A stretch of 64,000 bases of DNA, from contig NZ_JBGSRV010000003.1 in the NCBI RefSeq assembly GCF_041737375.1, positions 76,522 through 140,521 of the forward strand. Direction: 5' to 3'. The DNA is from Vampirovibrio sp. GTDB taxonomy: Bacteria; Cyanobacteriota; Vampirovibrionia; Vampirovibrionales; Vampirovibrionaceae. Positions 8,413 to 61,865 of the stretch are shown piece by piece. Positions within the stretch are counted from its first letter, which is position 1. Each line of letters starts with the position of its first letter. The translations under genes and the position numbers were made by a program. The notes below the pieces were generated by a model. That model saw only the letters and a list, made by a program, of their open reading frames with translations, searched no databases and was not told where the DNA came from.

Positions 8413-8473
8413 ACGGGTTTAAAAGGGATTAAAGCCGTTTAAAACCGGTAGGCACACCGAACTTTAAATTCAA

Positions 8474-10365: not shown

Positions 10366-11694
10366 TCAATCCCAATGGGCGGTGGTTAACTGAACCCGGC
10401 GCACAATCTCAGCCTCCGGCACGGTGAGTAACTGGCCTTGCTCAAACACCTTTTGGCCCGCCACATACACCGCCTGAATGGCTGAGGGCTGGCTGGCGTA
10501 AACCAGATTGTTCATGGCGTTCTGGCGGGGCTGCATGGAAAGATCGTTGAGGTTTACCACCGTAAAATCGGCGGCAAAACCGGCCTTAAGCTGACCGATG
10601 GGCAAGCCCAGATTTTGCCCCCCGTGACGGGTGCCCATGGCAAACATATCCGCCGCCTTGGTCACTGTGGAATCCAGGAATTTGACCTTTTGCAGCAAGC
10701 TGGTCATTCGCATTTCCTCAATAATAGAGGCCCGGTTATTGCTGCACCCCCCATCCGTTCCCAAAGAAATACACACCCCGGCGGCCTGCATTTCCCGAAT
10801 GCGGGTAATGCCATCACCCAAAAACAGGTTGCTGGAAGGGTTGTAAGAAAGCCCGGTACCACGCTGAGCCATTAATTCAATTTCTTGATCATCCATCCAT
10901 ACGCAATGGATGCCCACCAGACGCTGGTTCAGCACCCCTAAACTCTCCAGAAAAGCCACCGGGGGTTTGCCGTGTTTCTCCTCAATCAGGGTGCGCTCGT
11001 ACTGGCCTTCGGCAATGTGCATATGGAATGGGGTATCCAACGATTCCGCCAACGCCGCCCCGGCCAGAATCATCTCCACGCTGGCCCCGTGCAAGCTATG
11101 CGGGGCGGGCAGCACATGCACCATGGGGTGCTGCTTGAATTCGGCATGCAACTGGCGGGTATTTTCCACCGCCTGCGGCACGGATTCCCGAAAGCGATCG
11201 GGCGCGCCGTCCCAGTCGTACATGGTACGGGCCATGACGATGCGAATGCCCACATCCAGCGCGGCCTGAATCACCGCACGGGCGTTATCGTTGGCCTGAT
11301 CGTTGATATAAAAGAAATCGCAAACCGTGGTAATCCCGGCTTTCAGCATTTCCCCAAAGGCAAACAGGGCGCCGGTGTAAATATCTTCTCTGCTCAGGGT
11401 TTTGGCGTACTTGTACAGGGCCTGATCCCGCCAGGTGAAAAAATCCTCGTCATCGCAAAAGCCTTTTAGCAAGGATTGAAACGAGTGATTGTGCGAGTTG
11501 ACCAAACCGGGAATGATCAAACCATTGGCAAAGTGAATGACCTCTGCCGGTTGGGCGCTAGCCCCGTCAGCCAGAGCATTAGTCAGGGTTTTCAGGGGGC
11601 CTGCCCCCAGAATTTGATCGTCTTCTACCCATAACCCCCAGCCCGATTGGGGTTGTCCGTCCCCGTGAATCAAATCGGCGGTGTAAATGGGCAT
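10366..11694 (-). CDS. Amidohydrolase-superfamily deaminase/chlorohydrolase-like protein (SsnA/HutF/guanine-deaminase family)
   Basis: Metal-ligand motifs HNHSFQ, HMHIAEG and HCVWMDD, with TIM-barrel amidohydrolase organisation. GAGGAG RBS before the ATG at 11694. Confidence 0.75.
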   Translation of the reverse strand: MPIYTADLIHGDGQPQSGWGLWVEDDQILGAGPLKTLTNALADGASAQPAEVIHFANGLIIPGLVNSHNHSFQSLLKGFCDDEDFFTWRDQALYKYAKTLSREDIYTGALFAFGEMLKAGITTVCDFFYINDQANDNARAVIQAALDVGIRIVMARTMYDWDGAPDRFRESVPQAVENTRQLHAEFKQHPMVHVLPAPHSLHGASVEMILAGAALAESLDTPFHMHIAEGQYERTLIEEKHGKPPVAFLESLGVLNQRLVGIHCVWMDDQEIELMAQRGTGLSYNPSSNLFLGDGITRIREMQAAGVCISLGTDGGCSNNRASIIEEMRMTSLLQKVKFLDSTVTKAADMFAMGTRHGGQNLGLPIGQLKAGFAADFTVVNLNDLSMQPRQNAMNNLVYASQPSAIQAVYVAGQKVFEQGQLLTVPEAEIVRRVQLTTAHWD

Positions 11695-46109: not shown

Positions 46110-46802
46110 ATGACCCCCCAACCCCCTGATCCCAAAGCCACCACCGGCAAACCCAGACCTGTGGATGCCCGTGGCGAAATCCTGCACCACGCCAAAATCC
46201 TGTTTCGGGAAAAAGGCTTCAGCTCGGTTTCCATGAACGATTTGGTGAATGTGGTGGGGCTTACCAAGCCCACCATTTATTATCACTTTACGGACAAGGA
46301 AACCCTGTTTAGCGAAGTGCTGGTGGAAATGATGCGCCACGGCAGCGAAATGCTGGTGGCCGGTGTAAAGCGCTGCAAGGGCTGCCGGGAAAAGCTGTAC
46401 AAAATGGCGGAAGGGTATTTTCGGTTTTCGCCCACCTCATTAAGCACCATGGTGCGTGATTCCAGCCAGCACTTAACTGAGGCGCACCTTAAAAAAGTAA
46501 TGGAAGCCCACCAGTTTTACTTGCTAAAACCGGTGGAAAGCATTTTTGAGGAGGGCATTCAGGCAGGCGAAATCAAAGCCACCGAAGATCCCCAAAAACT
46601 GGCTTTTTACTTTGTGAGCTGGATTGATACCATGACCACCTTAAAAGCCGCCTACGAGGGTCGATCCTTTGAAACACGGAAAAACGCCGAAACCATGGTA
46701 AATATTTTCCTGCACGGGGTAGCCCCGCCAGTCTCTAACGGTGGGCTGTCGCCCTCAGGCACTAACGGCGGATTGGCCCAATCCCCAGAAGAGACAGCCT
46801 GA
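46110..46802 (+). CDS. TetR-family transcriptional regulator
   Basis: N-terminal TetR HTH ([25 protein letters not shown]). Its stop overlaps the photolyase start (TGATG). Confidence 0.85.
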
Positions 46803-48250
46803 TGTCCGTGAAAAGCGTTCTGGTCTGGTTTCGACAAGATTTACGGCTGGCCGATAACCCCGCCTTACAGGCCGCCGAAAAAACCACCCTACCCGTGATT
46901 CCCGTTTATATTTGGGACACCGAGGCCGAAGGCAACTGGGCCATTGGGGCCGCCGATCGGGTCTGGTTTCACCATTCGTTACAATCGCTGGCCCAAGGGC
47001 TGCAAGCCCTGCAATCGCAGCTCATCATTCAGGCGGGCCACACCGGCACTCACTTACTGGCGCTGGCCCAGCAAAGCAAAGCCACCCAAATTCACTGCAA
47101 CGCCCGCTACGAGCCGCAGGCCATTCTGCAACAGCAGGCCCTGCAAAGCCTGCTGGCCAGCCAAGGAGTTGAACTGGTCATTCATGAAGGCGGCACCCTG
47201 CTTTGGGAGCCCCATAGCATTGAAACCGGAAGTAAAAAACCATATCAGGTGTACACCCCGTTTTTTAAACGGTGTCTGGAATCGATTCCGTCGCTGGAGC
47301 CGTTACCCAGCCCCCAGCATCTTAAAGCGCCGAGCCAGTGGCCAGAGAGCCTTAAACTGGAACAATTGAACCTGCTGCCTGCCATCCCATGGGATCGGGA
47401 AATGCGGGCCTTTTGGCAACCGGGGGAACCACAGGCCCATGAGTTGCTGGCCACTTTTATGGCCCACAAGCAAAAAAACTACGGCACCGCCCGAGACATC
47501 CCGTCGGTGGATGGAACCTCCCGCCTGTCGGCTTATTTGCGGCACGGGGAAATCTCACCCCGCCAAATCTGGCATGCCATCACGGAGGCTGAGGATAAAG
47601 CGGGCGGCAAGGATTATTTGCGGGAAATTGCATGGCGAGAATTTGCCTACCATGTGTTGTTTCATTTTCCGCACACCACCGATAGCGCCCTAAAGTCCAA
47701 GTTTAACGATTTGCCCTGGACCCTGAATGCCGAATATTTTGAGCGCTGGACGCAAGGGCAAACCGGCTACCCCATTATTGATGCCGGTATGCGGCAACTC
47801 TGGCGCATTGGCTGGATGCACAACCGGGTGCGTATGATTGTGGGTTCTTTTTTAACCAAGGATTTAATGATTTCCTGGCACGATGGGGCCCGCTGGTTTT
47901 GGGACACGCTGGTGGACGCCGATTTGGCCCAAAACAGCCTGAACTGGCAATGGGTGGGCGGTTGTGGGGCCGATGCCCAGCCCTTTTTCCGTATTTTCAA
48001 CCCCATGACCCAAAGCAAAAAGTTTGATCCTGAAGGCCGCTATATTCGCCAATGGGTACCGGAACTGGCCCAATTGCCCGCCCAGTATATTCACGAGCCT
48101 TGGGAGGCCCCCCCGCTGGTTTTGCTCAACGCTGGCATTCAACTGGGCAAAACCTACCCCCACCCCATCGTGGACCACGCCACGGCCCGCAATCACGCCT
48201 TAAAGCTGTATAAAAGCATGGCAGACCCTGCGGCCACCCCCACCGCTTAA
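46802..48250 (+). CDS. phr: Deoxyribodipyrimidine photolyase (CPD photolyase / cryptochrome family)
   Basis: N-terminal '[16 protein letters not shown]' and a C-terminal FAD-binding region ([18 protein letters not shown]...WQWVGGCG). Confidence 0.9.
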
Positions 48251-48377
48251 CCTCCGGCCTCCCACGTAAGCATCTCCAGCGACGGCCTTTGGATTGGCAA
48301 AGCGACGCAACATTTACCCCAATTTAGCAAGACGCAACAAGGTCGCTTTGCTGCTTCTTAAACCTTCTTGCCCCTTT

Positions 48378-50180
48378 TTACCCGTGCTGTTCCCGTTCCC
48401 AGTCCCAGGCTTCTTCGGCGGCATTCAATTCAAACTGATGGCGCATGGCAGGGCTAATGGCCAGCAACAGTTCATTAAACACCATGCGGGCTGATTTATC
48501 GGCAAACGCAATCACCGCCCCTTCATGCTCGGAGCGTTTCTCCAGCCACTGGGCAATCAGGCGGGATTCTTCATAGAGAGATTTGGGAATGGGCTGACCC
48601 GCAGCGGCCGTGTGCGAGTCCAGCGCATCGAGCGCCTGCTGAATCCAGAGGATCATGGCATCCCAGTCCAGCAGAACAGGATCAATGGTTTTCCACTGAT
48701 GGGGCTGCCCCTGCAACACGCTAAGCAGGCGGAAGCATCCGGGCTCTTGCGCGGGCAGCACAATCAGGCAATGGCGCAGGGTGACCGCCTGAATGAGCCG
48801 ATAACTGGTTTGCCGAAAGCGCCCCAATAATTCCAGTTGTTCCTGAATCAGGGCGGCCTTTTCAAAGCGCAACGCCTCCACATAAGCCTCTCGCTTGGCG
48901 GTCAGTCCATCCAGGGCGTTGCAGGGCTGCTGGGCCAAAAAGCGCAGGAAATCGGCCACCCGCTCCTGATAGTCAGCCTCATTGATTTTTCCGGCACAGG
49001 GGCCACTACACAACCCCAACTGATACTGCATGCACGGGCTGGCCCGATGCGCCTCAAACTTGCGATCCGAGCAATCCCGCAACTGAAAACTACGGTTCAA
49101 TACTTCCAGCCTGTTTTTTAGAGAAGACAGCCCGTGAAAGGGGCCAAAATAGGCCAGTTCAGGATTGTCGCTATCCTCGCTCAGGCTTAGGCGGGGAAAC
49201 CGGGCGTTGACGGACACGGCCATAAACACCATTTGCTGATAATCTTTAACTTTTTGATTAAAAAACGGCTGATGCTGTTTAATGAGGCGAGATTCCAGAA
49301 TCAGGGCCTCCAGCTCTGAGCCCACCACCATCACCTCAATCTGGGTCACCTGGCGCATCATCACCGCAATTTTGGAGGGCAAACGGGATTGCTTCTGAAA
49401 ATAGCTTCTCAGTCGCACTTTCAAATTTTTGGCCTTACCCACATATAAAATTTCGCCCATCCGGTTTTTCATTAAATACACACCGGGCTGGGCCGGGTAA
49501 TCCTTCAAGCGATTGCGATCAAAGGGCAACTCATTTCGGGTGCGATACACCCGCACCGGCACACCGGGACAAAAATCCAGCAGTTGGGCAAATTGGGTAA
49601 CCCCTTGCTTGCCCAGCAAATCCAGCAGCTTTAAAAACACTTTGGCCCCAATAATGGCGGCATTTTCAGTGCGAGCCAGCCCATCGGTTTCCAGGCCCCA
49701 GTGGGCGGCCCAATGGTTCAGCCCATGGCGGGGCAAATCGGGCAATAATTTTTGGGCCAGATTGAGCAGAAAAAACTGGCGATCCCGTGGCTGAGTGAGC
49801 TTGAAATAGCGGTGAACGGCGTTGGTTGTTCCGGGCGGATTGGCCCACAAAATCACATCCCGCTCCACAAAGGCGGCCAGCTCCGGCAAAACGGATTCCA
49901 GCGGCGGGCATTCCCGCAAGCTTTGGGTATAAATGCCGGTTTTGCGGGTAAATTCCTCAGGCAAGGCATGGGGTGGGCTGAATCGCATATGCAACGTTTC
50001 GGCGATGCGAGCGTCTCGAATTTTAACGCAAGCCAGTTCCACCACGTCCGAGTTGGACTGAAGATCGTTGACCGTTTTTACGCAGATCAACGTAAACCGA
50101 ATATCGGACAAAGGGGCTATGGGGGGCATAAAACTCTCTGGGGTGGACAGCCGTAAGCGGAAACGCCCGCCTGAAACCAT
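48378..50180 (-). CDS. UvrC-homologue (Cho-like) GIY-YIG endonuclease with an N-terminal ~190-aa extension
   Basis: GIY-YIG (GVYLMKN...ILYVGKAKNLKVRLRSYF) and the UvrC Cys-rich module (CSDRK...CMQYQLGLCSGPCAG). The N-terminal region is only weakly DnaQ-like and lacks the canonical DxE / HNxxFD residues. A start at ATG 50129 is possible. Confidence 0.7.
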   Translation of the reverse strand: MVSGGRFRLRLSTPESFMPPIAPLSDIRFTLICVKTVNDLQSNSDVVELACVKIRDARIAETLHMRFSPPHALPEEFTRKTGIYTQSLRECPPLESVLPELAAFVERDVILWANPPGTTNAVHRYFKLTQPRDRQFFLLNLAQKLLPDLPRHGLNHWAAHWGLETDGLARTENAAIIGAKVFLKLLDLLGKQGVTQFAQLLDFCPGVPVRVYRTRNELPFDRNRLKDYPAQPGVYLMKNRMGEILYVGKAKNLKVRLRSYFQKQSRLPSKIAVMMRQVTQIEVMVVGSELEALILESRLIKQHQPFFNQKVKDYQQMVFMAVSVNARFPRLSLSEDSDNPELAYFGPFHGLSSLKNRLEVLNRSFQLRDCSDRKFEAHRASPCMQYQLGLCSGPCAGKINEADYQERVADFLRFLAQQPCNALDGLTAKREAYVEALRFEKAALIQEQLELLGRFRQTSYRLIQAVTLRHCLIVLPAQEPGCFRLLSVLQGQPHQWKTIDPVLLDWDAMILWIQQALDALDSHTAAAGQPIPKSLYEESRLIAQWLEKRSEHEGAVIAFADKSARMVFNELLLAISPAMRHQFELNAAEEAWDWEREQHG

Positions 50181-50443
50181 AAAAAGTCAACACTTCCAGA
50201 CTCCCGTCCAGTATCCCGGCTGACTTTTCTGATTTGTAACGGGCTTGTTATATTCTAGCATCCGATGGCCTCCCTCGTCGCCCCCCAACCTAAAAGAAAC
50301 AGGTGATCACCGGCAGGCGATCAGGGTACAATAAGTCTGCCGGAACCGGCGCCCCAAGCTTTTTAAAGTGCCTCCTTAATAAATAAAAAGAAAACTTTAA
50401 AAACCCAAAATCAGCGTTAAAACACCCAAAAGGAGATTCCACC

Positions 50444-50914
50444 ATGAGCGAGAAAGCAACATTTGCCGCTGGCTGCTTCTGGGGCATTGAAGATGCCTTT
50501 GCGCAGCAAACCGGGGTTATTTCCACCCAGGTGGGCTACACCGGCGGACATACCGAAAACCCCGTTTATCGGGAAGTGTGCGACGGAAACACCGGGCATG
50601 CCGAAGCGGTGCTGGTTGAATTCGATCCCGCCCAAATTTCCTATGCAGACTTGCTTAACCTGTTTTGGCGATTGCATGATCCCACCACCCTGAACCGTCA
50701 GGGGCCGGATGTGGGCAGTCAGTACCATTCGGCCATTTACTACCACACCGATCAGCAACAGGCCGAAGCCACCGCCGCCAAAGCGGATTTGAACCAGTCT
50801 GGCAAATTGCCCCGGCCAGTGGTGACCGAAATCACCCCGGCGGCTCATTTTTACCCGGCAGAAGAGTACCACCAGAAATACAACCAAAAACATGGCCGCC
50901 ACTGCGCCATTTAA
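50444..50914 (+). CDS. msrA: Peptide-methionine (S)-S-oxide reductase MsrA
   Basis: The 'AGCFWG' active-site motif and full MsrA length. Confidence 0.95.
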
Positions 50915-51022
50915 ACCCTGATTGGTTCAATCCCAATTTGATAAACACGAATTTGGCCCGTCCAAATCTCAGTTTTTCATTTTTTGGGTTGCCGTTTTCT
51001 TGCTGTTTTAATGTCGCTGGGC

Positions 51023-51054
51023 AAAAAAAAGCCTGTCCCTTGGGGGGAACAGGC
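51023..51054 (-). terminator. Rho-independent terminator for the minus-strand gene 51102-51953
   Basis: gcctgtccc / gggaacaggc 9-bp stem preceded on the plus strand by A8. This gives a U-run on the minus-strand transcript. Confidence 0.55.
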
Positions 51055-51101
51055 AGGCAATTGTCTAGTCAGTTTGCGTTGTGGTTTAGGGGGAGAGAAA
51101 A

Positions 51102-51953
51102 TTACTGAAACTGTTTCAGATAGTTGGCAATGGTATCTTTTTGAAAGCCGGTTAACCGGGCCAGTTGGGTGGCCACGGTATCGGCGTTGGCTTGCAAATA
51201 TCCCCGAAGCGATCCGCTGTTTTTGGCATACAGTTCAGCCCCGTATTTCAGCACGCTAGACAACACTCCCGCATCCAGCATGTGCCGAATATTATCCGGG
51301 GTCAGCTGGGCTTCCAGCAGTTTAATGGCCGGTTCGGGCAACGATTTGGCGGCCACCCCCAGCACCGTGGTTTTCAGAATATTCACGCACCAGTCGGACT
51401 TGGCGAAAGTCAATAAACCTTGTCCGCCTTTGCTACTGAACCAGCTGGCCACCGTTTCCGGCTTGATGCCCAACGACTGAAGCGTCTCAAAGCCTTGTTT
51501 CAAGCTGGGAAAAACCTTCGATCCCGTCGCTTGTGACGCGCTTTCGGCAGATGCTTTGGAAAGCGTCTCGCTGACTTGGCCCACCGCTTTGCCGACAACG
51601 GCTTCTGTCAAATTTTCGGCCAGGGTTTTGCCAACTCCGCTCAGCAGCCGCTTGCCCACCCAGTACAAGCCCACCGATACACCCGCCCCCACCAGCAGTT
51701 TTTTAAGCCACGACTTTTTGGGAGACGCCGCCGAATTGATAGCCGGAGGTTGCCCCCACACACTGGCGGACTGATACCCAAAGGCATCAGGAGGCGTGGA
51801 CCACGAGGGATAAGCGGCGTTGCCGTTGCCAAACACCAACTGCCCCCCGTTGGACCCGACAGAAGCCGCTGGCTGGTAAGAGGCCTGTAAGTGGCGCAAG
51901 CATTCATTCAGAGCGGTTTGGTACTGTGTGTTGGAAGCGTAATATTGAGCCAT
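51102..51953 (-). CDS. Hypothetical single-pass membrane protein (paralogue A of a three-member family)
   Basis: Q/Y/P-rich N-terminus, then 'SPKKSWLKKLLVGAGVSVGLYWVG' (TM), then a soluble C-terminal domain. Confidence 0.5.
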   Translation of the reverse strand: MAQYYASNTQYQTALNECLRHLQASYQPAASVGSNGGQLVFGNGNAAYPSWSTPPDAFGYQSASVWGQPPAINSAASPKKSWLKKLLVGAGVSVGLYWVGKRLLSGVGKTLAENLTEAVVGKAVGQVSETLSKASAESASQATGSKVFPSLKQGFETLQSLGIKPETVASWFSSKGGQGLLTFAKSDWCVNILKTTVLGVAAKSLPEPAIKLLEAQLTPDNIRHMLDAGVLSSVLKYGAELYAKNSGSLRGYLQANADTVATQLARLTGFQKDTIANYLKQFQ

Positions 51954-52324
51954 CGAACCAATCCTTATGAGTGCTTACCTGTGTGCTTACAAAAAAAGTG
52001 GGGTACACTTTAAAATGCTTGTGTAGGTATTAAGAAAAACTAAAACGCCTTTGTGTTGGCCAAATTACCTATTTCGTATAGGTAATTTCTCCCAGATTGA
52101 GCCAGATGAGGATTGATTGGGATTGATTAAGGGCGTTGCCAGCGTGCCCTTCCCCCGAGCTGGTCCGCAAAAAAATCAAACGCAAAAAATAAAACCCCAA
52201 AAAATCAAACAAGCCCAATCCCTTATTTAAGGATTGAACCTGTTTGATGAACCGGTTTGATTGTGAAGGCCTAAACCCAAACAGCGGTCGGTGGGGAAGT
52301 TCTTCCCCCTAGAACCCGCCAGCC

Positions 52325-52759
52325 TTAGGCCACCTGATTCAGGTTTTGACCCACGGTTTCCGCTTGCAAGGCTGCTTCCAGCTTGCTGGCCTGAGCCAGT
52401 GCTTGCAAGGCCGACAGATTGGCCCCTTTGGCGCTATAGGCCGCGCCGCCGCTGGTGTGGAAATCGGCCAGTTGGGCCAACTGCTTGGCCTTTTGCAAGT
52501 AAACAATATCACCACCGCCTGCGGCAAAAAACAGTTGAGCCAGGGCTTGCTCGGCCAAGGCGCTTGCGTTTTGGGCCGTTTGTTCTTCCGTAAGTTGTTC
52601 CGGGGTGATTGGTTCCGGGGTGTTTTTTTCGGGCTGAAGCGAGGCGGACTTCTTTTTCTCTTGCGCTTGGGCCGACTTGGCCCCAAATTGGGGATTAAGA
52701 GCCGATTTGGGTTGATTGAAACTGGTTGCGGTAATGGTCATAATCAATGCCTTTTTCAA
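52325..52759 (-). CDS. Hypothetical Ala/Gln-rich protein
   Basis: 144-aa low-complexity ORF between paralogues A and B. Start uncertain. Confidence 0.3.
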   Translation of the reverse strand: MKKALIMTITATSFNQPKSALNPQFGAKSAQAQEKKKSASLQPEKNTPEPITPEQLTEEQTAQNASALAEQALAQLFFAAGGGDIVYLQKAKQLAQLADFHTSGGAAYSAKGANLSALQALAQASKLEAALQAETVGQNLNQVA

Positions 52760-52970
52760 TGCGGGGGAGGGAACAAAACGTTCATTGCTGAACTGTGTTT
52801 ATATCAACGAATGCCCCGGTGGTTTTTGACTGCGCCAAATCTCCCAGATTCATAGGTCATTTGTCTCATCTTCAAAAAAATCACGTCCAAACCCCATTAA
52901 AAAACCCCCGCTAATATAATATAGCGAGGGTTTTTGATGTTTTAAGCTTATTGGCTTTGATTTCAGGGCC

Positions 52971-53426
52971 TTAACCAAACCATCCGCTGATCCAGTTTTT
53001 GGCTTTGCCCACAATACCCGTAGCCTCAGGCAAAGCGTTGGGGGCTTTGCCCAATAACCGTTCCGCCTGAACGAAAATTTCCTGGCCATAATGCCCCAGC
53101 GTTTGACCCGCCCGAGTAGCGGCGGCCGACTGAAAGGGCTTTTGAATCAATTCAGGCGTATAAGCAAGCACCGTTTGAGCGGCATTGGGAAAGTAGCGTT
53201 TCAAAGCGATTCCGCCCAGCAAAACCCCGCCTGCCACGGCGGTTCCTTTCAGCAAGGTTTTGAAAAAACCGGATTTTTTCTGGGGCGGCTCACCAAGGGC
53301 CAACAAATCCTGAGTGGTGAGGATTGAGCCGTAACGACCCGGAATGACCTGAAAAGGAGCAGGACGCCTTCCCCCATTCAAGGGAGGCTGGGGGGCGTAA
53401 AAACCGGATTGAATGGTATTGGGCAT
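52971..53426 (-). CDS. Hypothetical single-pass membrane protein (paralogue B)
   Basis: P/Q-rich N-terminus, then 'PQKKSGFFKTLLKGTAVAGGVLLGGIAL' (TM), then a short C-terminal domain. Confidence 0.45.
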   Translation of the reverse strand: MPNTIQSGFYAPQPPLNGGRRPAPFQVIPGRYGSILTTQDLLALGEPPQKKSGFFKTLLKGTAVAGGVLLGGIALKRYFPNAAQTVLAYTPELIQKPFQSAAATRAGQTLGHYGQEIFVQAERLLGKAPNALPEATGIVGKAKNWISGWFG

Positions 53427-53516
53427 AATTCATTCACCTATACAAGTTAGTGGCGTTGAAGTGATTGGTAGGCATATAAAAACCAAATGGCTCAAGTCTG
53501 TGCTGGGAGTTTTCCC

Positions 53517-54890
53517 CTATTTCCGCAAGATTTCGGGGGAATACCAGTTCTGCTCGGATACAGCATCAAAAAACTCACCCACGGATGCGGGAGCGGTTCC
53601 GGAGAGCTCACTGGATGGCTTCTGGAACATTTTTAGAAAACGGCCAACTAGCGGAAGTGTTTGGGCGTATTCGTGTATGGCATTCTTACCAATGGCTGAA
53701 CCCTCATTAAAAATATTGGCCTTTTGCTCTTCGCTGACCATCGCCCACAGTTTATCTAACAGTTCGCTGACATTGCCGGTTTCACGACTCTTGGCCAACG
53801 CAGCTGACAACTTTTGGGGAAATAAGACATTTAAAAAGCCTTTTAATTTTTCAGGCGAAATATTGTTAATGGCATCGCCCAGTATTTTGCCGTAATCCAA
53901 AGGCTCGCCGGACATCGCCTTGCTCAGGATGACCTCCATTTGCTGAGGACTGATGCGGTTGATCACCTCGGCAAGATATTGAGGCGACGTCATTCTTTCC
54001 AGATCCAGACCCATTGCCTTTCCAAGCTCTTTGGCCGCCTGGGTATCTTTTTCGGCAAACGTTTGCCAAATTTCAGCAAAGCCGTTACCGCCCTCTCGGG
54101 CTGCTTCAGCGGCTTTTTCAGCGGCCTTTTGAGAGGCGACCTTGGCTGCTTTAGCTTCATTCTGCAAGGTTTCTGCGGACTTAAACCAGTTTTTAAATCT
54201 TTGCCAACCGCTTTGACTCGTAGAAGAACCTGAGGCATCCACTGGCTGAGTGTAAACCTGATGGGCGTTTTTGGCCCGTTGTAAAATGGGGCCGGGTTTT
54301 TTCCATTCTTTAATGGCACGGGCGGCTTTGGAAGCGCCCTTAGGGCCAATACTTCTGGCCAGCTCCACAAAACCGGGATAAAACATCCACATTAAACCCA
54401 CCACCGTGCCAGCGGTGGCAAAAACACCGGTAACAACAGCGCTGGTAATCAACAAAAACTTTTTAATATTCTTTTTGGTGCTGGCCGGATCTTTAACAGC
54501 GGGTAAAGCGTAAAAGTGATTTTGAACCTGGGGTCTGGGCATTGGAGAAGCAGGACTGGCATTGCCCAAAGCCGGGGAGCCAAAGGGGGCAAAAGCGGCA
54601 TTGGCCGCGGCAGGCAAAACCGGCGAAGGACGGTTCAACAACTGGGCCGGTAAAGGCAAGGCGGGTAAAGGCGTCAAGGGCTGATTCAAGGGCCGGGCCA
54701 AAGACTGATTCAAAGGACGGCTCAAGGGACGGGTCAAGGGCTGAGCAGGTGGCGCACCGTAGGCAGGCATGGCATTGTAAGGGGGCCCATAGGCCTGCTG
54801 TCCAAATGCAGGGGCAGTCGCCGCTTTACGGGACCGAAAGGCGGTGCTGGGCTGATTGTAAAACTGATTGGCGTTGAATGGGTATGCCAT
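53517..54890 (-). CDS. Hypothetical single-pass membrane protein (paralogue C) with a Pro-rich repetitive N-terminus
   Basis: 'RPLSRPLNQSLARPLNQPLTP' repeats, then 'STKKNIKKFLLITSAVVTGVFATAG' (TM), then a ~280-aa helical C-terminal domain. Confidence 0.5.
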   Translation of the reverse strand: MAYPFNANQFYNQPSTAFRSRKAATAPAFGQQAYGPPYNAMPAYGAPPAQPLTRPLSRPLNQSLARPLNQPLTPLPALPLPAQLLNRPSPVLPAAANAAFAPFGSPALGNASPASPMPRPQVQNHFYALPAVKDPASTKKNIKKFLLITSAVVTGVFATAGTVVGLMWMFYPGFVELARSIGPKGASKAARAIKEWKKPGPILQRAKNAHQVYTQPVDASGSSTSQSGWQRFKNWFKSAETLQNEAKAAKVASQKAAEKAAEAAREGGNGFAEIWQTFAEKDTQAAKELGKAMGLDLERMTSPQYLAEVINRISPQQMEVILSKAMSGEPLDYGKILGDAINNISPEKLKGFLNVLFPQKLSAALAKSRETGNVSELLDKLWAMVSEEQKANIFNEGSAIGKNAIHEYAQTLPLVGRFLKMFQKPSSELSGTAPASVGEFFDAVSEQNWYSPEILRK

Positions 54891-55039
54891 ATCCCTAAAG
54901 CCTCTGGTTGGAGAACGGGGTGATGAGGGACTATTCCGGTGAGTTGCCTATATAAAAGAAGAACATCCATTTTTGTGCTACCGCCATCATAGGAAAAATT
55001 GCCTATTTAAAAAAAACGCCCTCCCGGTTTAGATCGAGT

Positions 55040-56287
55040 ATGGAAAATATAATTGCGTTATTTAAAGGAAGATCCTTCCGTATGACCGCCCCGGTGCCTT
55101 TGCCCGAAAAGCATGTCATGCTGCCCGTGGCCCTGTTTTTTATCATTGGCGGATCGCTGGCCTATATTGATAACCAGCTAAAACTGAACACCCTGCTGCT
55201 GGAAAGCGTACATGCCACGGTGGTAACCACCATTTACCTTTTTTGCCTGTACTACGGCAAAAAATATCCCCATATTCGGCACTTTGGCTGGAACAGCATT
55301 TTATGGGGCATGGGCTTACTGATGCTCGGCACCTGGATGGACATTCTGGATGATCCCCCCCAGCTTTGCGCCTTGGGGCAAATCAACATTCCGCTGGGGC
55401 CAAGCTGGCAACATGCTTTTTTGAAAAAAACCTTTGGCTATACCATTGGCATTGGGCTGTTTGCCTACGGATTTTTCCAGTGGATTCCGTGGATGGTGAA
55501 AACCAGAACCGACATTAACAGCCTGAACCAGAGGCTAAGCAGCACCAACAAAAATTTGAATCAGGCCCTGATGAGTCTGGATGAGCATGTGGAATCGGAA
55601 CGGGTCAATATTTCCAGAGAATTACACGATGACGTGGCCCAGCAACTGACCTATGTGAATATCCAGTTGCAACTGCTCCGCAAGGATATGGAATCCGGCG
55701 ATGCGCTTCGCATTCAAAACACGGAGGGCAAGCTCAGCGAAATCAGCGCCAATATTTCAGAAGCCCTGAAAAGCGTCCGCCAAATCAGCGGCGACTTACG
55801 GCCCGAATCGCTCTATTCTCTGGGGTTAATTCCGGCGCTGGAGCATTTTATGGAAAAACTGCAACACCAAACCAGCAGCACCACCCTTGTGTTTGAATTC
55901 CTGCCGCTGCCGGGGTACATCAACGCCACGCGCATTGAAAAATGGGTGAACGATCAACAGTTATTGCACCTGTTCCGGGTCATTCAGGAAGGCACCCGGA
56001 ACGCCCTGAAACACGCCAAGGCCAGCACCATTAAAGTCACCATTGCAGAACAGGAAATCACCGGCACCGGTCAGGCTACCCCGGTTTTGCAGTTGTCCAT
56101 TCGCATTGAGGACAACGGTTGTGGCTTGCCATGGCCGCAGATTCCCCCGGATGAAACATTGATTCAGCAAGGCCACTTGGGTATTGTGGGGTTAAAAGAA
56201 CGGGTCAAAGCCCTCTCTGGCGTATTCCATTTAAGCAACCGTTCCAACGGCCCCGGCGCCATTCTGGAGATTCAAATTCAATCATGA
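55040..56287 (+). CDS. Membrane sensor histidine kinase, NarL/HisKA_3 type
   Basis: N-terminal TM segments, H-box 'ERVNISRELHDDVAQQL' and HATPase_c. Its stop overlaps the response-regulator start (ATGA). Confidence 0.85.
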   Translation: MENIIALFKGRSFRMTAPVPLPEKHVMLPVALFFIIGGSLAYIDNQLKLNTLLLESVHATVVTTIYLFCLYYGKKYPHIRHFGWNSILWGMGLLMLGTWMDILDDPPQLCALGQINIPLGPSWQHAFLKKTFGYTIGIGLFAYGFFQWIPWMVKTRTDINSLNQRLSSTNKNLNQALMSLDEHVESERVNISRELHDDVAQQLTYVNIQLQLLRKDMESGDALRIQNTEGKLSEISANISEALKSVRQISGDLRPESLYSLGLIPALEHFMEKLQHQTSSTTLVFEFLPLPGYINATRIEKWVNDQQLLHLFRVIQEGTRNALKHAKASTIKVTIAEQEITGTGQATPVLQLSIRIEDNGCGLPWPQIPPDETLIQQGHLGIVGLKERVKALSGVFHLSNRSNGPGAILEIQIQS

Positions 56288-56934
56288 ACCATCAACTCGA
56301 CCCTTCCCCCATTCAGGTTTTACTGGTGGATGATCACCCCATTTTGCGGCAAGGCATGCGCCAGTTGCTGGAAACACACGGCGGCTTGCACGTCTGTGGT
56401 GAGGCGGGCGACGGGGAAAACGCGGTGGTTCAGGCATTGGCCCACAAACCCGATATTATTTTAATGGATATCAACCTGCCTAAAATCAGCGGTTACGAAT
56501 CCAGCCGGGCCATTATGACCGCATGGCCAGAGGCCAAAATTATTATCCTGAGCAATCAGGATGATCCGCATGTGATGAAAAAATGCCTGGATCTGCCGGT
56601 GAAGGGGTTTTTATTAAAAGACATCCAGATTGAAGTGCTGGTGGAAGCCATTCGCAAAGTGCGTAGCGGAGAACCGCTGGCCTTGTCAGAAGAGCTGGCT
56701 CAAAAACTGAAGAAAAAAGAGCGCAACGCCAATGGCCATTTACGAGAAGCCTTAACCGAGCGGGAACGGGAAGTCTTGCAGGCATTAAGCAAAGGCTACA
56801 CCAATCAAAAACTGGCCGATTTATTGGTGGTTAGCCCCAAAACGGTGCAAAATCATTTGTACAGCATCTATCATAAAATTGGGGTCAGCAGCCGGTCTGA
56901 AGCCATTTTGTGGGCCATTGAAGCCCAATTATAA
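56284..56934 (+). CDS. NarL/LuxR-family response regulator
   Basis: REC domain (VLLVDDHP...D...K) and LuxR HTH (LTEREREVLQALSKGYTNQKLADLLVVSPKTVQNHL). Confidence 0.9.
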   Translation: MNHQLDPSPIQVLLVDDHPILRQGMRQLLETHGGLHVCGEAGDGENAVVQALAHKPDIILMDINLPKISGYESSRAIMTAWPEAKIIILSNQDDPHVMKKCLDLPVKGFLLKDIQIEVLVEAIRKVRSGEPLALSEELAQKLKKKERNANGHLREALTEREREVLQALSKGYTNQKLADLLVVSPKTVQNHLYSIYHKIGVSSRSEAILWAIEAQL

Positions 56935-57077
56935 ACAGGCTTTTCAAACCGCTTTTTATCAAAAAGAAAAACCGACCGCCCGATTCAGTGGGCAGCCGGT
57001 GGTATTCATTTTCCCTCTCCGTTCAGATCTTTTTCGTTCAGATTTTTTGGATTTTGAAGTGTGGTAAAAACAAGGGC

Positions 57078-58244
57078 TTAAGCGGTGGCATCCAGACGCT
57101 GACCGTTGCCTCCCGTGGTTTTCAAGTGGTCTTTCACCTTTGCAAACTGCTTTTTTAAGCCTTCATCCAGCTGGTTCCAGCCCACGGATTCCAGGTTGGG
57201 TGGCGGGTTTTGGCGCAAGGCGGCCATGACCTTGGGGTGCGATCCCACTAAAACAGGATAGTTCGGAACCCCTTCCAAAGTGTGGCTGCTCAACAAGGCG
57301 ATATCATTGGTGTTATCGCCAGCGGAAATAACCGCTTGCGGCTTTTGCTCAAAGCGGGTGGCCAGCAAGTGCCGCACCAGAGAAGCTTTATTGGTATTTT
57401 CCGGCCCCAGGTGAATATGGCAGCCTTCCGAGGATTGGCTGTTATAAAACATCACGGTAGGCCATTGCGGCTTTAAGCGGGCTTGCAAGTGATCAATCAG
57501 AAATTCAGAATAGTTGGCAATGTCTGGCTCGGTGACATCCGGCTGGGTGGAGGCCACTTCAAAATAGGTTTGATCCGGGCAAATGCGAATCACCCAGTCC
57601 CCGGATTTGGGATGCTTGGGAGACATGGGCTTTTGAAAGGCAAAGTATTCTCCATTCGGGTTAAACCGATTTTTTTCACCCGGTTTGGCCGCCAGTTGAA
57701 AGCCCAAATCCGTTTGCAAGGTGTCTCGAATATCTTGCAACACCTGAGTGGCAGACCACCCACCCAGCACCGCTTTCCAGTGCGGATCCTGATCCGATCG
57801 ACTGAGTGACTGAAGCCAGGATTGACTGTCGTTTTTTGGGTGGGCGTTTTTGTCTAGCGAGGCGGAACGCAAATACAGTTGCTGGCCATCATTCAGGCCC
57901 AAGGCATCAATGGGCAAATCCCGCAAAATAGGGGCCAGGCGTTTCACCGCCGATAAACTGCGCCCGGTGTTCAAAATCACAAAACTCTGATTTCTAAAAT
58001 CCGGACTTCCCAGTGTTTTGCGGTAACGGGTTAAAGCAACCTCATCATACTCAGGCTCTTTCAACCAGGGAATTAAAGTGCTATCAATATCCAGAGAAGT
58101 AAGAACCGGCTTTTGCGCTAAAAATTTCTGAGCCGATCCAGAAATTTTTAAAGTTGGGGGGCTGAACCGACGAGGGGCTACGCTTTGAGGGGACGGGGTT
58201 TTTGCGGAAACCGGCGCGCCCCAAAAACTGGAAAATCCAAGCAT
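57078..58244 (-). CDS. HAD-IIB family hydrolase (sucrose-phosphatase / MPGP-like)
   Basis: Motif I 'DIDSTL', motif II 'ILNTGRS', motif IV 'GDNTNDIALL'. It has an unusually long N-terminal leader. Confidence 0.7.
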   Translation of the reverse strand: MLGFSSFWGAPVSAKTPSPQSVAPRRFSPPTLKISGSAQKFLAQKPVLTSLDIDSTLIPWLKEPEYDEVALTRYRKTLGSPDFRNQSFVILNTGRSLSAVKRLAPILRDLPIDALGLNDGQQLYLRSASLDKNAHPKNDSQSWLQSLSRSDQDPHWKAVLGGWSATQVLQDIRDTLQTDLGFQLAAKPGEKNRFNPNGEYFAFQKPMSPKHPKSGDWVIRICPDQTYFEVASTQPDVTEPDIANYSEFLIDHLQARLKPQWPTVMFYNSQSSEGCHIHLGPENTNKASLVRHLLATRFEQKPQAVISAGDNTNDIALLSSHTLEGVPNYPVLVGSHPKVMAALRQNPPPNLESVGWNQLDEGLKKQFAKVKDHLKTTGGNGQRLDATA

Positions 58245-58441
58245 TGCAATGGCTCCTTCATATGGACATTGTTTGGTTTAAAAAGTACTCACAACAGGCC
58301 AAACATTTATTATTTTTTTCGGCCTTTAAAAACCCACTTTGAATTGATGCGCTCACTATACAACGCTGAATGTGAAAACCGGATGACAAACCCGGACTTT
58401 GTTTCAAGTTCCGCAACATAGACAGCATCCGACCTCTATGC

Positions 58442-58476
58442 AAAACGCCGACTCTGTTTCCAGAACCGGCGTTTTT
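58442..58476. terminator. Hairpin plus T-run downstream of htpG (bidirectional-looking terminator)
   Basis: acgccg / cggcgt stem flanked by A-run and T-run. Confidence 0.4.
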
Positions 58477-58508
58477 AAGGGTTTAAAATAATCGCTTACA
58501 AAAACGAA

Positions 58509-60461
58509 TTAAATGGCTTTTACCAATAAATCCGTCATCAACTTGCTGAACTTGGCGGGTTCCGGCAACGGACTGCCTTCGGCCAGCAACGCTTGCCCGT
58601 ATAGCAAATAGCTATAATCGGCCAGCGCCGGTTCCTGCTGATTGGCCGCAAACAAGGCCTGCAATTTCTGGTTGAGGGGATGGTTGGGGTTGATTTCCAA
58701 AATCCGCTTGCTCTCCGGTACCGGCTGATTCATGGACTTCAGCAATTGCTCCATCTGCGGGGATAAATCCGAGGGGTTGCCCACCAGACAGGAAGGCGAT
58801 TCGGTCAAGCGGCTGGAGAGGCGAACCTCTTTTACATACTCGCTCAACTGGCCTTTCATGGCTCCCAGCAAATCGCCGTAAGTTTTGCCTTTTTCTTCCA
58901 GCGCTTGCTCGGCCTGTTTTTTCTCTTCCTCGGTGCCAAGTTCCACGGTGCCTTTGCCTACGGATTGCAAATCAAATTCACCAAATTTATAAACGGACTG
59001 GGTCCATACCTCATCCACCGGATCGGTGAGTAGCAAAACCTCGTAACCCTTATCCCGGAAGGCTTCCAGGTGCGGGGAGTTCTCAATGGTTTTGCGATCC
59101 TCGCCACTGGCGAAATAAATTTTATCCTGTCCCGGCTTCATGCGAGAGACATAATCCTTCAGGGTGGTCAGCTCGGTAGGCGAATGGGTAGAACTCAGTT
59201 GCAACAAGCCCAGCAAGGCTTCCTGATTTTCGCGATCCTCGTACAAGCCTTCCTTCAAAACCCGGCCAAACTCACCCCAAAATTGCAGGTATTGGGCCGA
59301 ATTGGCAGTGGCCATGTTTTCCAGGGTGCCCAGCACCTTTTTAACCAAGCGGTTGCGGATGGCCCGAATCTGGCGGTTTTGCTGCAAAATTTCACGGGAA
59401 ATATTAAGGCTGAGATCTTCAGAATCCACCACGCCTTTAATAAAGCGCAGGTAATCGGGCATCAGCTCTTTGCAGTCATCCATAATGAAGACCCGCTTGA
59501 CGTAAAGCTGAACGCCTCGTTTGCCTTCCCGGTAATACAAGTCCTGTGGCGCTTTTTCTGGAATGTACAGCAGCGCTCTGGCCTCAAAGGTGCCTTCCAT
59601 CTTCATGCGGAACCAGCTCATCGGCTCATGCCAATCGTGAGAAATATGCTTGTAAAACTCTTTGTACTCGTCTTCGCTCACTTCATTTTCGGGGCGAATC
59701 CAGATGGCTTTCATGGAGTTCAGGGTTTCCCGCTTTACGCTGGTTTTGGCGGAACCCTCAACCACTTTGCCCGCCTCATCCCGATCGTAATCGGTATGGG
59801 TGACATCCATTTGAATGGGGTAGTTCACGAAATCGGAATACTTTTTAACAATGGATTTGATGGACCATTCGCTGGTGTAGTCGTGTAAGCCGTCTTCGCT
59901 GTCTTCCTGCTTGAGGTGCAAGGTAATGGAAGTACCGTGGCTAGCCCGTTCTACCGGCTCAATGGTGTAGGTGCCATCTCCGGCGGATTGCCAGCGGGTG
60001 CCATGTTCCTCGCCCGCCTTGCGGGTTTCCAGAGTCACTTGATCGGCCACCATAAAGGTGGAATAAAAACCCACCCCAAATTGCCCAATCAGCTCTGGAG
60101 AGACTTCCCCGTGCTGCTGCTTGCGCTCTTTTAAAGCGCCCATAAACTCACGGGTGCCGGATTTGGCGATGGTGCCAATCAGGTTAACCACATCCTCACG
60201 GGACATGCCGATGCCGTTGTCTTCAATGGTCAGGGTTTGGGTTTGCGGGTTGGGAATTAATAAAATGCAAGGCTCATCCACCTTGGGTAAATCCGGGTTG
60301 GTCAGCGCTTCAAACTTCAGCTTGTCAATGGCGTCTGAGGCGTTGGAAATCAGCTCCCGCAAGAAAATATCCTTGTTGGAGTAGATGGCGTGGATCATGA
60401 GATCCAGCAATTCCTTGGTTTCCGTCTGGAATGAATGACGTTCAATGGTGGGGGTGGTCAT
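58509..60461 (-). CDS. htpG: Molecular chaperone HtpG (Hsp90)
   Basis: N-terminal 'ETKELLDLMIHAIYSNKDIFLRELISNASDAIDK' signature. AAAGGAG RBS before ATG 60461. Confidence 0.95.
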   Translation of the reverse strand: MTTPTIERHSFQTETKELLDLMIHAIYSNKDIFLRELISNASDAIDKLKFEALTNPDLPKVDEPCILLIPNPQTQTLTIEDNGIGMSREDVVNLIGTIAKSGTREFMGALKERKQQHGEVSPELIGQFGVGFYSTFMVADQVTLETRKAGEEHGTRWQSAGDGTYTIEPVERASHGTSITLHLKQEDSEDGLHDYTSEWSIKSIVKKYSDFVNYPIQMDVTHTDYDRDEAGKVVEGSAKTSVKRETLNSMKAIWIRPENEVSEDEYKEFYKHISHDWHEPMSWFRMKMEGTFEARALLYIPEKAPQDLYYREGKRGVQLYVKRVFIMDDCKELMPDYLRFIKGVVDSEDLSLNISREILQQNRQIRAIRNRLVKKVLGTLENMATANSAQYLQFWGEFGRVLKEGLYEDRENQEALLGLLQLSSTHSPTELTTLKDYVSRMKPGQDKIYFASGEDRKTIENSPHLEAFRDKGYEVLLLTDPVDEVWTQSVYKFGEFDLQSVGKGTVELGTEEEKKQAEQALEEKGKTYGDLLGAMKGQLSEYVKEVRLSSRLTESPSCLVGNPSDLSPQMEQLLKSMNQPVPESKRILEINPNHPLNQKLQALFAANQQEPALADYSYLLYGQALLAEGSPLPEPAKFSKLMTDLLVKAI

Positions 60462-60563
60462 GGGGGACACAGGCTCCTTTTTTACAAACCGCTTTTGTGG
60501 CAATTAAATCTGCCCCCATTATAGGCTGAGTTTTGGCCAACCCGGCCCACACTTAAGCCTTTT

Positions 60564-61865
60564 TTAAGAATTGCCCGCCTCAAAAACATCGCTTTCCAGC
60601 TGGCCCTTCAAAAGCTGAATGAGATAACTGAGGGCGTATTGGGTAACCCCATGCTTAATGTCTTGTCGGCTATAGCGGCTGTTGACCAACACTTTTTTAA
60701 CCCACACCGACTGATTCCGGGCCAACCCGATATAGGCCAGTCCCACGGGCTTTTCCTCGCTGCCGCCATCCGGCCCCGCAATGCCGGTAATGGATACCCC
60801 CAAATGGCTACCGCTGAACTTCAGAATACCCTGGGCCATTTCCGCCGCCACCTGGGGACTGACCGCCCCGTGCCGCTCCAGTGTGTCTTCAGACACTCCC
60901 AGCAAGCGGGTTTTCTCGGCATTGGCATAAGTGACCACGTTCAGGCGGGTATAGGCGCTGCTGCCCGCAATATCCGTGAGGCGGCTGCTCAGCAGGCCCC
61001 CGGTGCAGGATTCCCCCACCGACACAGAAAGCTGGCTGGCCTTCAGCAATTGCCCCGCCAAGGCTTCCAGAGTGGCCTCATCGTCGCCAAAATAATAATC
61101 GCCGCAGCGCTTTAAAATTTCCGCCTTGACCGGGGCCATTAAAGCCTCGGCGGCATCCACGCTGTCCGCCTTGGCGGCAATTCTAATTTTCACTTCCGCA
61201 CGACCCACATAAGGGGCCACGGTGGGGTTGGCGCTGCTCATCAGGTCGGCAAGCGCTTCCCCTAAACTGGATTCTCCAATGCCGAAAAACCGCAAATAGC
61301 GCACTTGCAACACCGGGGCCTGTTCTCCCAAATGGCGTTGTTTGGCCCGAATCCAGGAGGCCCCTTGCGGCCACATGCCCACCAGCTCTTTGGGCACACC
61401 GGGAAAGGTGAGTAGCAAAGTGGGTCGCCCGGTTTTGTCAGAAACATCCCAGGCCACTCCCGGCGCGGTGCCTACCGGGTTTTTGATGGTTTCCGCCCCT
61501 TGCGGCTTTTTGGCCTGCTTTAAATTACTGTCCGACAGGGGCAAGCCCCGCCCCATAAACCACTGGCGAAGGGCCTGTTCCGATTCAGGATCGGTGATTA
61601 ACGGGGTTTGAAAAAAATGGGCAAGAGTGGCCATGGTCAAATCATCTTCGGTGGGCCCCAGTCCGCCGGTAAAAATCAGCAAATCCGAGCGTTCAATGGC
61701 CTGCTGAATCACCCCCTGAATGCGGGCCGGATTATCGCCCACCGTGACATGATAATGCACATCCACACCCAAGGCGGCCAGTTCCCGAGAAATCCAGGCC
61801 GCGTTGGAGTTAATCACATCTCCAATTAAAAGCTCACTGCCAATGGCAATTATTTCAGCCTTCAT
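60564..61865 (-). CDS. cinA: CinA-family protein (competence/damage-inducible; MoCF-binding domain plus PncC-type NMN deamidase domain)
   Basis: 'IIAIGSELLIGDVINSNAAWI' N-terminus and full two-domain length. Confidence 0.9.
   Translation of the reverse strand: MKAEIIAIGSELLIGDVINSNAAWISRELAALGVDVHYHVTVGDNPARIQGVIQQAIERSDLLIFTGGLGPTEDDLTMATLAHFFQTPLITDPESEQALRQWFMGRGLPLSDSNLKQAKKPQGAETIKNPVGTAPGVAWDVSDKTGRPTLLLTFPGVPKELVGMWPQGASWIRAKQRHLGEQAPVLQVRYLRFFGIGESSLGEALADLMSSANPTVAPYVGRAEVKIRIAAKADSVDAAEALMAPVKAEILKRCGDYYFGDDEATLEALAGQLLKASQLSVSVGESCTGGLLSSRLTDIAGSSAYTRLNVVTYANAEKTRLLGVSEDTLERHGAVSPQVAAEMAQGILKFSGSHLGVSITGIAGPDGGSEEKPVGLAYIGLARNQSVWVKKVLVNSRYSRQDIKHGVTQYALSYLIQLLKGQLESDVFEAGNS

Follow-up and report, generated by a model that had tools for sequence, protein, structure and literature searches.

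What do four adjacent genes, none of which belongs to a described protein family, do beside a well-conserved two-component system? The question is raised by a stretch of 64,000 nucleotides from Vampirovibrio sp. (contig NZ_JBGSRV010000003.1, positions 76,522 to 140,521 of the forward strand), the whole of which we call the window. It holds four minus-strand genes, transcribed in the order A, B, Q and C and referred to below as the island, and, divergently from A and separated from it by 149 bp, the genes for a histidine kinase (HK) and a response regulator (RR). A first-pass annotation, made by a model from the sequence alone, had reported three minus-strand open reading frames (ORFs) of 283, 151 and 457 amino acids (aa) here as paralogous single-pass membrane proteins of no known family. 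All three are present and correspond to C, B and A, as are the peptides that it quoted from them (residues 137-155 of A, 48-67 of B and 77-95 of C).

We propose, with a probability of about 0.45, that the four genes are the variable output module, or regulon, of the adjacent and highly conserved two-component system. The sensor is conserved, and its proposed outputs vary, to an unusual degree, and the locus makes a compact testable unit of one kinase, one regulator, an 18-bp putative operator and a handful of lineage-specific membrane proteins.

Conserved flanks and a divergent island

The genes of the island are real, as each of them has frame-preserving orthologues with the same N-terminus. 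A is 45% identical to the homologue P0002 and 39% identical to P0003, C is 51% identical to P0005 and B is 55% identical to P0007. Q, which had been listed as a small A/Q-rich ORF interleaved with the other three, is a conserved gene with orthologues in six other loci (L003, L004, L006, L009, L011 and L013). Database records of Vampirovibrio sp. contain identical copies of A, B and C under the label 'hypothetical protein'.

The setting of the island is constant. HtpG, a HAD-like hydrolase, the RR and the HK are followed by the divergent gene A and a variable set of small orphans, then by msrA on the other strand and by a UvrC-like gene. The window shares this order with nine further, independent contexts (L005, L006, L007, L008, L009, L010, L011, L013 and the contig of P0018), where L006 is V. 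chlorellavorus NCIMB 11383 and L009 is the one further locus that a metagenome scan with the kinase alignment returned. What lies between A and msrA, or between A and the contig end where that comes first, is not constant and amounts to 0-5 small orphan genes per context. There are none in L010, B alone in L007 and L008, two copies of B followed by Q in L006, and B, Q and a 147-aa orphan on the opposite strand in L009. The window, L003 and L013 have B, Q and C, and L011 has B, a methyltransferase gene, Q, C and a 101-aa ORF on the opposite strand. The two additions in L011 (a Methyltransf_21 gene at 8158-8922 and the ORF at 10648-10953) indicate that the island accepts unrelated insertions.

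The first-pass annotation had described the cluster as followed by a NarL-type two-component system. Such a system is indeed present, with a HisKA_3 kinase and a GerE/NarL-type regulator adjoining A and divergent from it, but it does not merely follow the cluster, since it is syntenic with A in about ten independent contexts and a conserved palindrome is shared with the island genes (see below). We regard it as the feature of the locus that tells most. The N-terminal 155 residues of the kinase form approximately four hydrophobic transmembrane (TM) helices joined by loops of about 14-30 residues, without a periplasmic domain, and its core resembles UhpB, NarQ and LiaS (62 bits for LiaS in NCBIfam). 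The best NCBIfam match of the regulator is NarL, at 152 bits, which is below the cut-off of 250.

The system and the island diverge at very different rates. Identity to the window is 61-79% for the HK, 74-85% for the RR and 71-77% for MsrA, whereas it is 10-24% for A, 20-32% for B and 27-31% for Q. Within A the juxtamembrane and TM core is 47-60% identical in L005-L008 and 12% identical in the more distant L009, the C-terminal 200 residues are only 2-15% identical, and different helical modules replace the C-terminus between genomes. P0002 and P0009 have 4 copies of a repeat of about 40 aa, as against 1-2 degenerate copies in the window. The earlier suggestion that the family may be polymorphic is supported: the C-terminus of A is swapped, its repeat number varies, and so do the presence and copy number of B, Q and C. 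The TM sensor domain of the kinase (residues 20-156) is, on the other hand, 84-88% identical in L005-L008 and 59% in L009, compared with 68-75% and 67% for the catalytic core, so that in L005-L008 it is the sensor that has changed less, contrary to what is usual among sensor kinases.

A number of further features belong to this neighbourhood. Six related genomes have, in the space from msrA to the UvrC-like gene, a member of a fifth family of small conserved ORFs, which we call D (69-79 aa; Table 1). Its C-terminal tail is hydrophobic, rich in Gly and flanked by Lys (KKLxRNWIGAGLKLxGQG), and the window has no copy. Positions 46802-61865 of the window form a run of damage and stress genes, comprising a photolyase, a 600-aa fusion of RNase_T, GIY-YIG and UVR domains, MsrA, the two-component system, a HAD/S6PP-like hydrolase, HtpG and CinA, in an order that is kept in related genomes. 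The closest homologues of A, P0002 and P0003, have a different setting (L001:576-4497 and L002:26-1655), in which each comes after an orphan protein of 282 aa (MNFYNTYLQ...). The homologue in L001 and fliI, which encodes the flagellar export ATPase, are convergent, and the one in L002 has a transposase after it.

Candidate operator sites in the island

The 149 bp between the HK and A show 80% mean column identity over five genomes, far above that of A itself. Their invariant blocks include the arms of a palindrome (consensus ATAGGCAAATTTTCCTAT), a putative operator that reads ATAGGCAATTTTTCCTAT in the window, and a further half-site, ATAGGCAA. The ATAGG and CCTAT arms of the palindrome are invariant in 9 of the 9 loci that hold the HK/A region.

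Related sites recur ahead of the other island genes (Table 1). The operator-like site between A and B has equivalents in L003, L007 and L008; upstream of Q, the position of the window's variant element is occupied in L006 by a perfect ATAGG-N8-CCTAT; and the site upstream of C has a relative at position 1218 of L004. Across the loci, ATAGG-type sites are confined to the intergenic regions of the island, namely the HK/A region (9 of 9), four A-B junctions, the DNA upstream of Q in L006 and L009 and that upstream of C in L004. The degenerate pattern MTRGG-N8-CCYAK has exactly three matches in the window, where 1.05 would be expected, one each upstream of A and C and the third at the stop codon of A, just before B. 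The octamer ATAGGYAA occurs 6 times in the window; the promoters of A and C account for 4 of these occurrences, and at C the octamer makes up the perfect palindrome with 11-nt arms. What counts as independent evidence is that an element taken from the promoter of A recurs ahead of C and, in other genomes, ahead of B and Q.

The half-site read on the other strand, TNCCTAT, resembles the heptamer TACYYMT bound by NarL (PMC4886647), as would suit the family of the regulator. The half-sites TACCTAT, TGCCTAT and TTCCTAT fit that heptamer at 6-7 of 7 positions, while their spacing and orientation differ from those of NarL sites.

A second conserved element, (T/C)AGCACAA(A/G)AA, comes after the operator upstream of A (54970-54980) and of B (53498-53507) and is also present in L007, L008 and L009. 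A -35-like box is one possible reading of it and a piece of the regulator's footprint another; sigma-28 and sigma-54 promoter readings, judged by eye, were rejected as the key positions do not fit. Besides the terminator and the palindrome, the spacer between Q and C (51954-52324, 371 bp) has two short tandem repeats, one of period 10 at 52110-52128 and one of period 15 at 52170-52210. A terminator had been noted earlier for one gene of the cluster; terminator-like hairpins do stand after Q and C, and a hairpin with a T-run after B. An Rfam scan of 50000-57500 gave nothing above noise.

The encoded proteins and their hydrophobic segments

The N-termini of all four families are uncharged and rich in N, Q, S, Y and P. 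From the N- to the C-terminus, A comprises a conserved MAYxFN motif, a disordered region rich in P, A and Q, a 'VQNhFY' box, a KKNIKKFLL segment with the TM helix (residues 145-175), and a helical C-terminal region, in which the window has 1-2 degenerate repeats of about 40 aa. The 'RPLxxPLNQ' tract that had been described for this protein is present, reads LTRPLSRPLNQSLARPLNQPL and corresponds to a 12-nt tandem repeat in the DNA (Table 1). B has a polar N-terminus, the segment KKSGFFKTLLK, a Gly-zipper-like hydrophobic core of 15 residues, KRYFP and a short helical tail. C has a conserved N-terminal helix, a low-complexity region, KKSWLKKLL with a hydrophobic core of 15 residues, and a well-conserved helical domain of about 180 aa. 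Q is a soluble, A/Q-rich helical protein in which a PQFGAK box and the C-terminal half are conserved and no hydrophobic segment was found.

The first-pass claim of one TM helix in each of A, B and C is borne out clearly for A alone. The helix of A has 23-31 uncharged residues across the family and a Kyte-Doolittle value of 1.94 in a 19-residue window. The cores of B (15-18 uncharged residues, Kyte-Doolittle 1.58) and C (15 residues, 1.29) are short, Gly-rich and bracketed by Lys/Arg, such that membrane insertion of both is plausible but marginal. A has 5-6 Lys/Arg in the 15 residues ahead of its TM helix as against 1-4 after it, which favours a cytoplasmic N-terminus.

The earlier proposal that the three proteins are paralogues finds partial support. 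BLASTP among A, B and C gave one 28-residue match between A and C (E 0.011) and nothing else. When profiles of the families were compared with hhalign, the juxtamembrane segment was generally the top alignment, though a weak one. The B-C alignment rose from 14% to 42% probability (E 2.7e-4, 26 columns) once the families had been enlarged to 12 and 4 members, whereas A-B (E 0.02-0.06) and A-C (E 0.04-0.2) were not significant, and with the larger A profile the A-C alignment moved to a C-terminal 'G-I/L-x-P-E' helix start. When hidden Markov models of A or B were run against 1081 background ORFs, the other families came out in first and third place, but at E 0.07-1.5 (Z=3000), which is the top of the noise. 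By these comparisons a common juxtamembrane module appears likely for B and C and possible for A, the B-C profile support being moderate and limited to about 25 juxtamembrane residues.

The first-pass annotation had itself allowed that the shared motif might be a generic TM flank. Significant similarity between A and B or between A and C is indeed lacking, but the motif is the best conserved stretch among orthologues in all three families, and for this reason we consider it more than generic. Invariant residues are K144, F145, T149, A151, V152, G155, T159 and P172 in A, G66 and P80 in B (with A74 and R77 kept in at least 90% of sequences), and K84, K85, L87, G89, G91, G95, Y97, G100 and K101 in C. 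In each family the motif presents a small-xxx-small face, which in A, for instance, consists of A151-G155-T159. We rejected a type IV pilin-like reading of 'KKSG/FF', as the motif lies 47-136 residues from the N-terminus and A, B and C have no Glu at +5.

A, B, C and Q represent three or four new protein families that are undescribed in current databases and confined to Vampirovibrio. The proteins and their alignments gave nothing significant in scans of Pfam, NCBIfam, PADLOC and PHROG, and profile searches of PDB gave no meaningful match, in line with the first-pass statement that no known family could be recognised. Its suggestion of a lineage-specific family is also upheld. A HMMER profile search of 1.84 billion cluster representatives (clusters defined at 50% identity) returned 16 A-family clusters, of which 15 are genuine and share the same core; the sixteenth, P0019, a 3367-aa PKD/Laminin_G protein with unrelated Cys-rich repeats, is a false positive. 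Among 185,579 species genomes in GTDB the A family was found in 3, all Vampirovibrio, and every named record of the families is from Vampirovibrio. The B family has 12 members, with 1-2 copies per genome, and the C family has 4. A tblastn search with A of plasmid and phage collections gave zero matches, and thus no sign of an origin in mobile elements. The genome paper of Soo et al. (2015) does not mention the locus.

AlphaFold2 (AF2) models of A (mean predicted local distance difference test score, pLDDT, 37.7) and C (pLDDT 35.9), built from shallow alignments, are unusable as folds; their secondary structure is disordered ahead of the anchor and helical from the anchor onward. Weak recurring matches of the homologues to MgtE_N, Phage_TAC_15, CAAP1, ApoLp-III and BAR_3 were judged to be low-complexity helical noise, and MgtE_N/FliG-like repeats were not found (MgtE_N in homologues 17-24 bits versus a gathering score of 25.9; FliG, PDB 3usy, E 0.18). 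The C-terminal region of the A orthologue P0017 matches DUF948 (PF06103) at 33.6 bits against a threshold of 37.2; A, B and C of the window gave no match to DUF948.

Table 1. Coordinates of the genes, protein segments and DNA elements discussed in the text (positions in the window unless a locus is given).
Feature	Position	Strand	Details
Gene A	53517-54890	minus	457 aa
Gene B	52971-53426	minus	151 aa
Gene Q	52325-52759	minus	144 aa; likely start M7 at 52741
Gene C	51102-51953	minus	283 aa
Histidine kinase	55040-56287	plus	HisKA_3 and HATPase_c domains
Response regulator	56284-56934	plus	receiver (Response_reg) and GerE/LuxR helix-turn-helix; start overlaps kinase stop codon
Putative palindromic operator ATAGGCAATTTTTCCTAT	54989-55006		divergent HK/A promoter region
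Extra half-site TATATAGGCAAC	54943-54954	minus	beside likely -10 region of A; conserved in intergenic alignment
Operator-like site ATAGGGGAAAACTCCCAG (minus-strand reading)	53503-53520		overlaps A stop codon, upstream of B
Conserved variant element CCTATGAATCTGGGAG	52841-52856	minus	upstream of Q; also in L003 and L004
Perfect palindrome with 11-nt arms (AAATTACCTAT / ATAGGTAATTT)	52062-52095		overlaps ATAGG-N8-CCCAG site, upstream of C
Juxtamembrane motif and TM of A, STKKNIKKFLLITSAVVTGVFATAGTVVGLMWMFYPGFV	54366-54482	minus	best conserved part of A family
Juxtamembrane motif and hydrophobic core of B, PQKKSGFFKTLLKGTAVAGGVLLGGIALKR	53196-53285	minus	
Juxtamembrane motif and hydrophobic core of C, SPKKSWLKKLLVGAGVSVGLYWVGKR	51648-51725	minus	
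12-nt tandem repeat, 2.6 copies	54710-54740	minus	encodes RPLx tract; orthologues lack the repeat
Hairpin just 3' of B, 14-nt arms	52900-52935		flanking A/T runs; likely terminator
Terminator-like hairpin and T-run 3' of Q	52248-52204	minus	
Terminator-like hairpin 3' of C, 9 pairs (6 G-C) and T8	51054-51031	minus	
D ORF	L006:13459-13818		
D ORF	L007:12019-12267		
D ORF	L008:7528-7899		
D ORF	L010:8225-8452		
D ORF	L011:11880-12119		
D ORF	L013:10349-10558		

A proposed regulon of the two-component system and its rivals

We propose that the HisKA_3 kinase, with its approximately four TM helices and almost no exposed loops, would be an intramembrane-sensing kinase that detects a cue in the membrane or envelope and phosphorylates the NarL-type regulator. 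The regulator would then bind palindromes of the form ATAGG-N8-CCYAK, both in the promoter region that the HK and A share and in front of B, Q and C, and would induce a group of helical proteins whose site of action is the cytoplasmic membrane. A would be a signal-anchored single-pass protein, most likely with its disordered N-terminus inside the cell and its helical-repeat domain outside; B and C may attach through their short Lys-flanked hydrophobic segments rich in small residues, and Q would be soluble. The conserved juxtamembrane and TM segment would be the constrained part, serving as an anchor, as a surface for helix-helix packing or possibly as a contact with the kinase, and the exposed helical parts would be free to diverge. 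The neighbourhood of stress and repair genes and the near-threshold DUF948 match of P0017 fit a role in envelope or membrane stress.

A number of known systems share parts of this arrangement. The Lia system of Firmicutes (liaIH-liaGFSR, and likewise VraSR/CesSR) has an intramembrane-sensing HisKA_3 kinase, a NarL-type regulator and a palindrome ahead of the target genes, which has its counterpart here in the putative operator. Its targets are a small membrane anchor, LiaI, and the helical, membrane-associated LiaH/PspA. However, the kinase of the window has about 4 TM helices rather than 2, the host is a melainabacterium of Gram-negative type, and the island proteins, unlike the Lia targets, are hypervariable between species. 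In cpxP-cpxRA of E. coli, a strongly regulated gene encodes a small all-helical envelope protein that is thought to act at or on the kinase; like cpxP, A is divergent from the sensor and regulator genes and shares with them an intergenic region that contains a putative operator. The components are nevertheless of other classes: CpxA is a HisKA-class kinase with a periplasmic sensor domain and CpxR a regulator of the OmpR type, where the window has a HisKA_3 kinase with no exposed domain and a NarL-type regulator. CpxP carries a signal peptide and is a soluble LTXXQ protein of the periplasm, whereas A is membrane-anchored and has no LTXXQ/CpxP match in Pfam. NarL/NarP offers the best NCBIfam match of the regulator and half-sites close to the TACYYMT heptamer, but the kinase lacks the periplasmic P-box and the HAMP domain of NarX/NarQ, its NarQ and NarX matches in NCBIfam cover the core only (residues 184-407), and no nitrate-respiration genes are nearby.

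The proteins themselves bring two further comparisons. A is like a polymorphic protein in having a conserved N-terminal and TM part, an interchangeable C-terminus and a variable number of small genes after it. Unlike in polymorphic toxins, toxin, immunity and trafficking domains (such as Rhs, PT-TG, LXG or MafB) were not found, the variable parts are low-complexity helices, and B shows no visible co-variation with the C-terminus of A. A single anchor followed by long helical repeats rich in A, K, E and Q is also found in stress proteins of the DUF948/YtxH type and in apolipoprotein/LEA-like repeats; the anchor of A differs in lying mid-protein, after a disordered N-terminus of 135 aa, and the DUF948 score of P0017 is sub-threshold.

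Several observations weigh against a regulon of this kind. The enrichment of operator sites is partly circular, because the degenerate pattern was built from the sites that it finds, and the half-site arrangement in ATAGG-N8-CCTAT is unlike the 7-2-7 arrangement of NarL. We infer binding of the regulator at the palindrome from proximity and family alone. The content of the island varies, and L010, with A only, indicates that B, Q and C are dispensable. No two-component system is near the A homologues P0002 and P0003, whose neighbours are fliI or a transposase, and P0020 likewise has no such system; the association of A with the system is thus strong but not absolute. Weak constraint on low-complexity helices might be enough to explain the fast divergence. 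Finally, homology of A, B, Q and C to LiaF, LiaI, PspA or CpxP was not found in Pfam or NCBIfam, and the resemblance to those systems is therefore an analogy of logic, not membership.

Of the other explanations, one is that the island encodes prey-interface proteins, that is, hypervariable exported or surface effectors, adhesins or translocon-like membrane inserters of an obligate algal predator, which diversify in an arms race while the two-component system senses contact with prey. The restriction of the genes to Vampirovibrio, their extreme divergence with replacement of the A C-terminus and variable repeat copy number, the differing gene content of the genomes and the uncharged N/Q/S/Y/P-rich N-termini of all four families would all suit such a role, as would the position of the A homologue P0002 next to fliI. 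The polar, uncharged N-termini and this one fliI neighbour are also the sole hints of type III (flagellar) secretion. That neighbour, however, is seen in one contig only, and the effector or adhesin proposed in the first-pass annotation has no direct evidence in its favour: the proteins have no signal peptide, this locus has no secretion-system genes, and no toxin, immunity or trafficking domain was found in A or 8 homologues, nor any adhesin or enzymatic domain, the C-terminal parts being low-complexity helices. The published model of V. chlorellavorus predation also has hydrolases delivered by a type IV secretion system (T4SS) and not proteins such as these (PMC4451040). We regard a prey-interface role as unlikely. 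A more specific version, to which we give only a slim chance, is a Vampirovibrio-specific prey-contact module in which the loop-less kinase would sense membrane deformation or lipid change on attachment to the alga and induce diversifying membrane-inserting proteins, whose Lys-rich, small-residue TM segments would enter the predator's own membrane or, after export, that of the prey.

The low loop content of the kinase bears on another explanation, namely that A, and perhaps B and C, partner the kinase through TM-TM contacts and either do the actual sensing or inhibit it in a feedback loop, in the way that LiaF, VraT and CpxP serve their kinases. The kinase has no notable sensing loops and its TM domain is its most conserved part; the TM/juxtamembrane segment is the only strongly conserved part of A and carries the invariant small-xxx-small face (A151, G155, T159), and the two genes adjoin in about ten contexts. 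Yet A is divergent from the kinase and outside its operon, A homologues exist with no kinase nearby, and homology to LiaF, VraT or CpxP was not found in Pfam or NCBIfam. We consider an accessory sensor slightly less probable than proteins of the prey interface. It may finally be asked whether the four are unrelated orphans with no common function, their motif being the generic Lys-rich flank and Leu-rich start of an anchor with its N-terminus inside. The pairwise and profile similarities are short and mostly non-significant, and the motif is low in information once the positive-inside bias is allowed for. Against this, the order A-B-Q-C or A-B-Q is kept in L003, L006, L009, L011 and L013, related putative operator sites stand upstream of several island genes, the B-C profile match grows with family size and the motif region is the most conserved stretch in every family. 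Coincidence is now unlikely because of the synteny and the shared cis elements, and we place it last among these explanations.

A regulon of the two-component system, our preferred reading, would have different consequences according to its cue. If the outputs respond to envelope stress, the reach of the Lia and Cpx logic would widen to include Melainabacteria, where the effector proteins are entirely new. Should contact with prey be the trigger, they would be the first candidate predation-specific regulon in the group, and the proteins of the prey-contact module described above would, if it is real, be a new class of predation factors without relatives elsewhere. To our knowledge no other cultured member of the non-photosynthetic sister lineage of Cyanobacteria is a predator, and what is known of how Vampirovibrio attacks comes from genome inference alone. 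It is also a pest of algal cultivation.

Two features elsewhere in the window were noted. SecA (5170-8412) is unusually long, at 1080 aa with a TTG start. Its DEAD motor domain (residues 56-449, for a profile of 290 positions) and its P-loop domain (residues 468-749, for 205 positions) both seem to contain insertions. Beyond it lie two adjacent convergent ORFs without a Pfam match, at 8654-9541 (plus strand, 295 aa) and 9522-10259 (minus strand, 245 aa).

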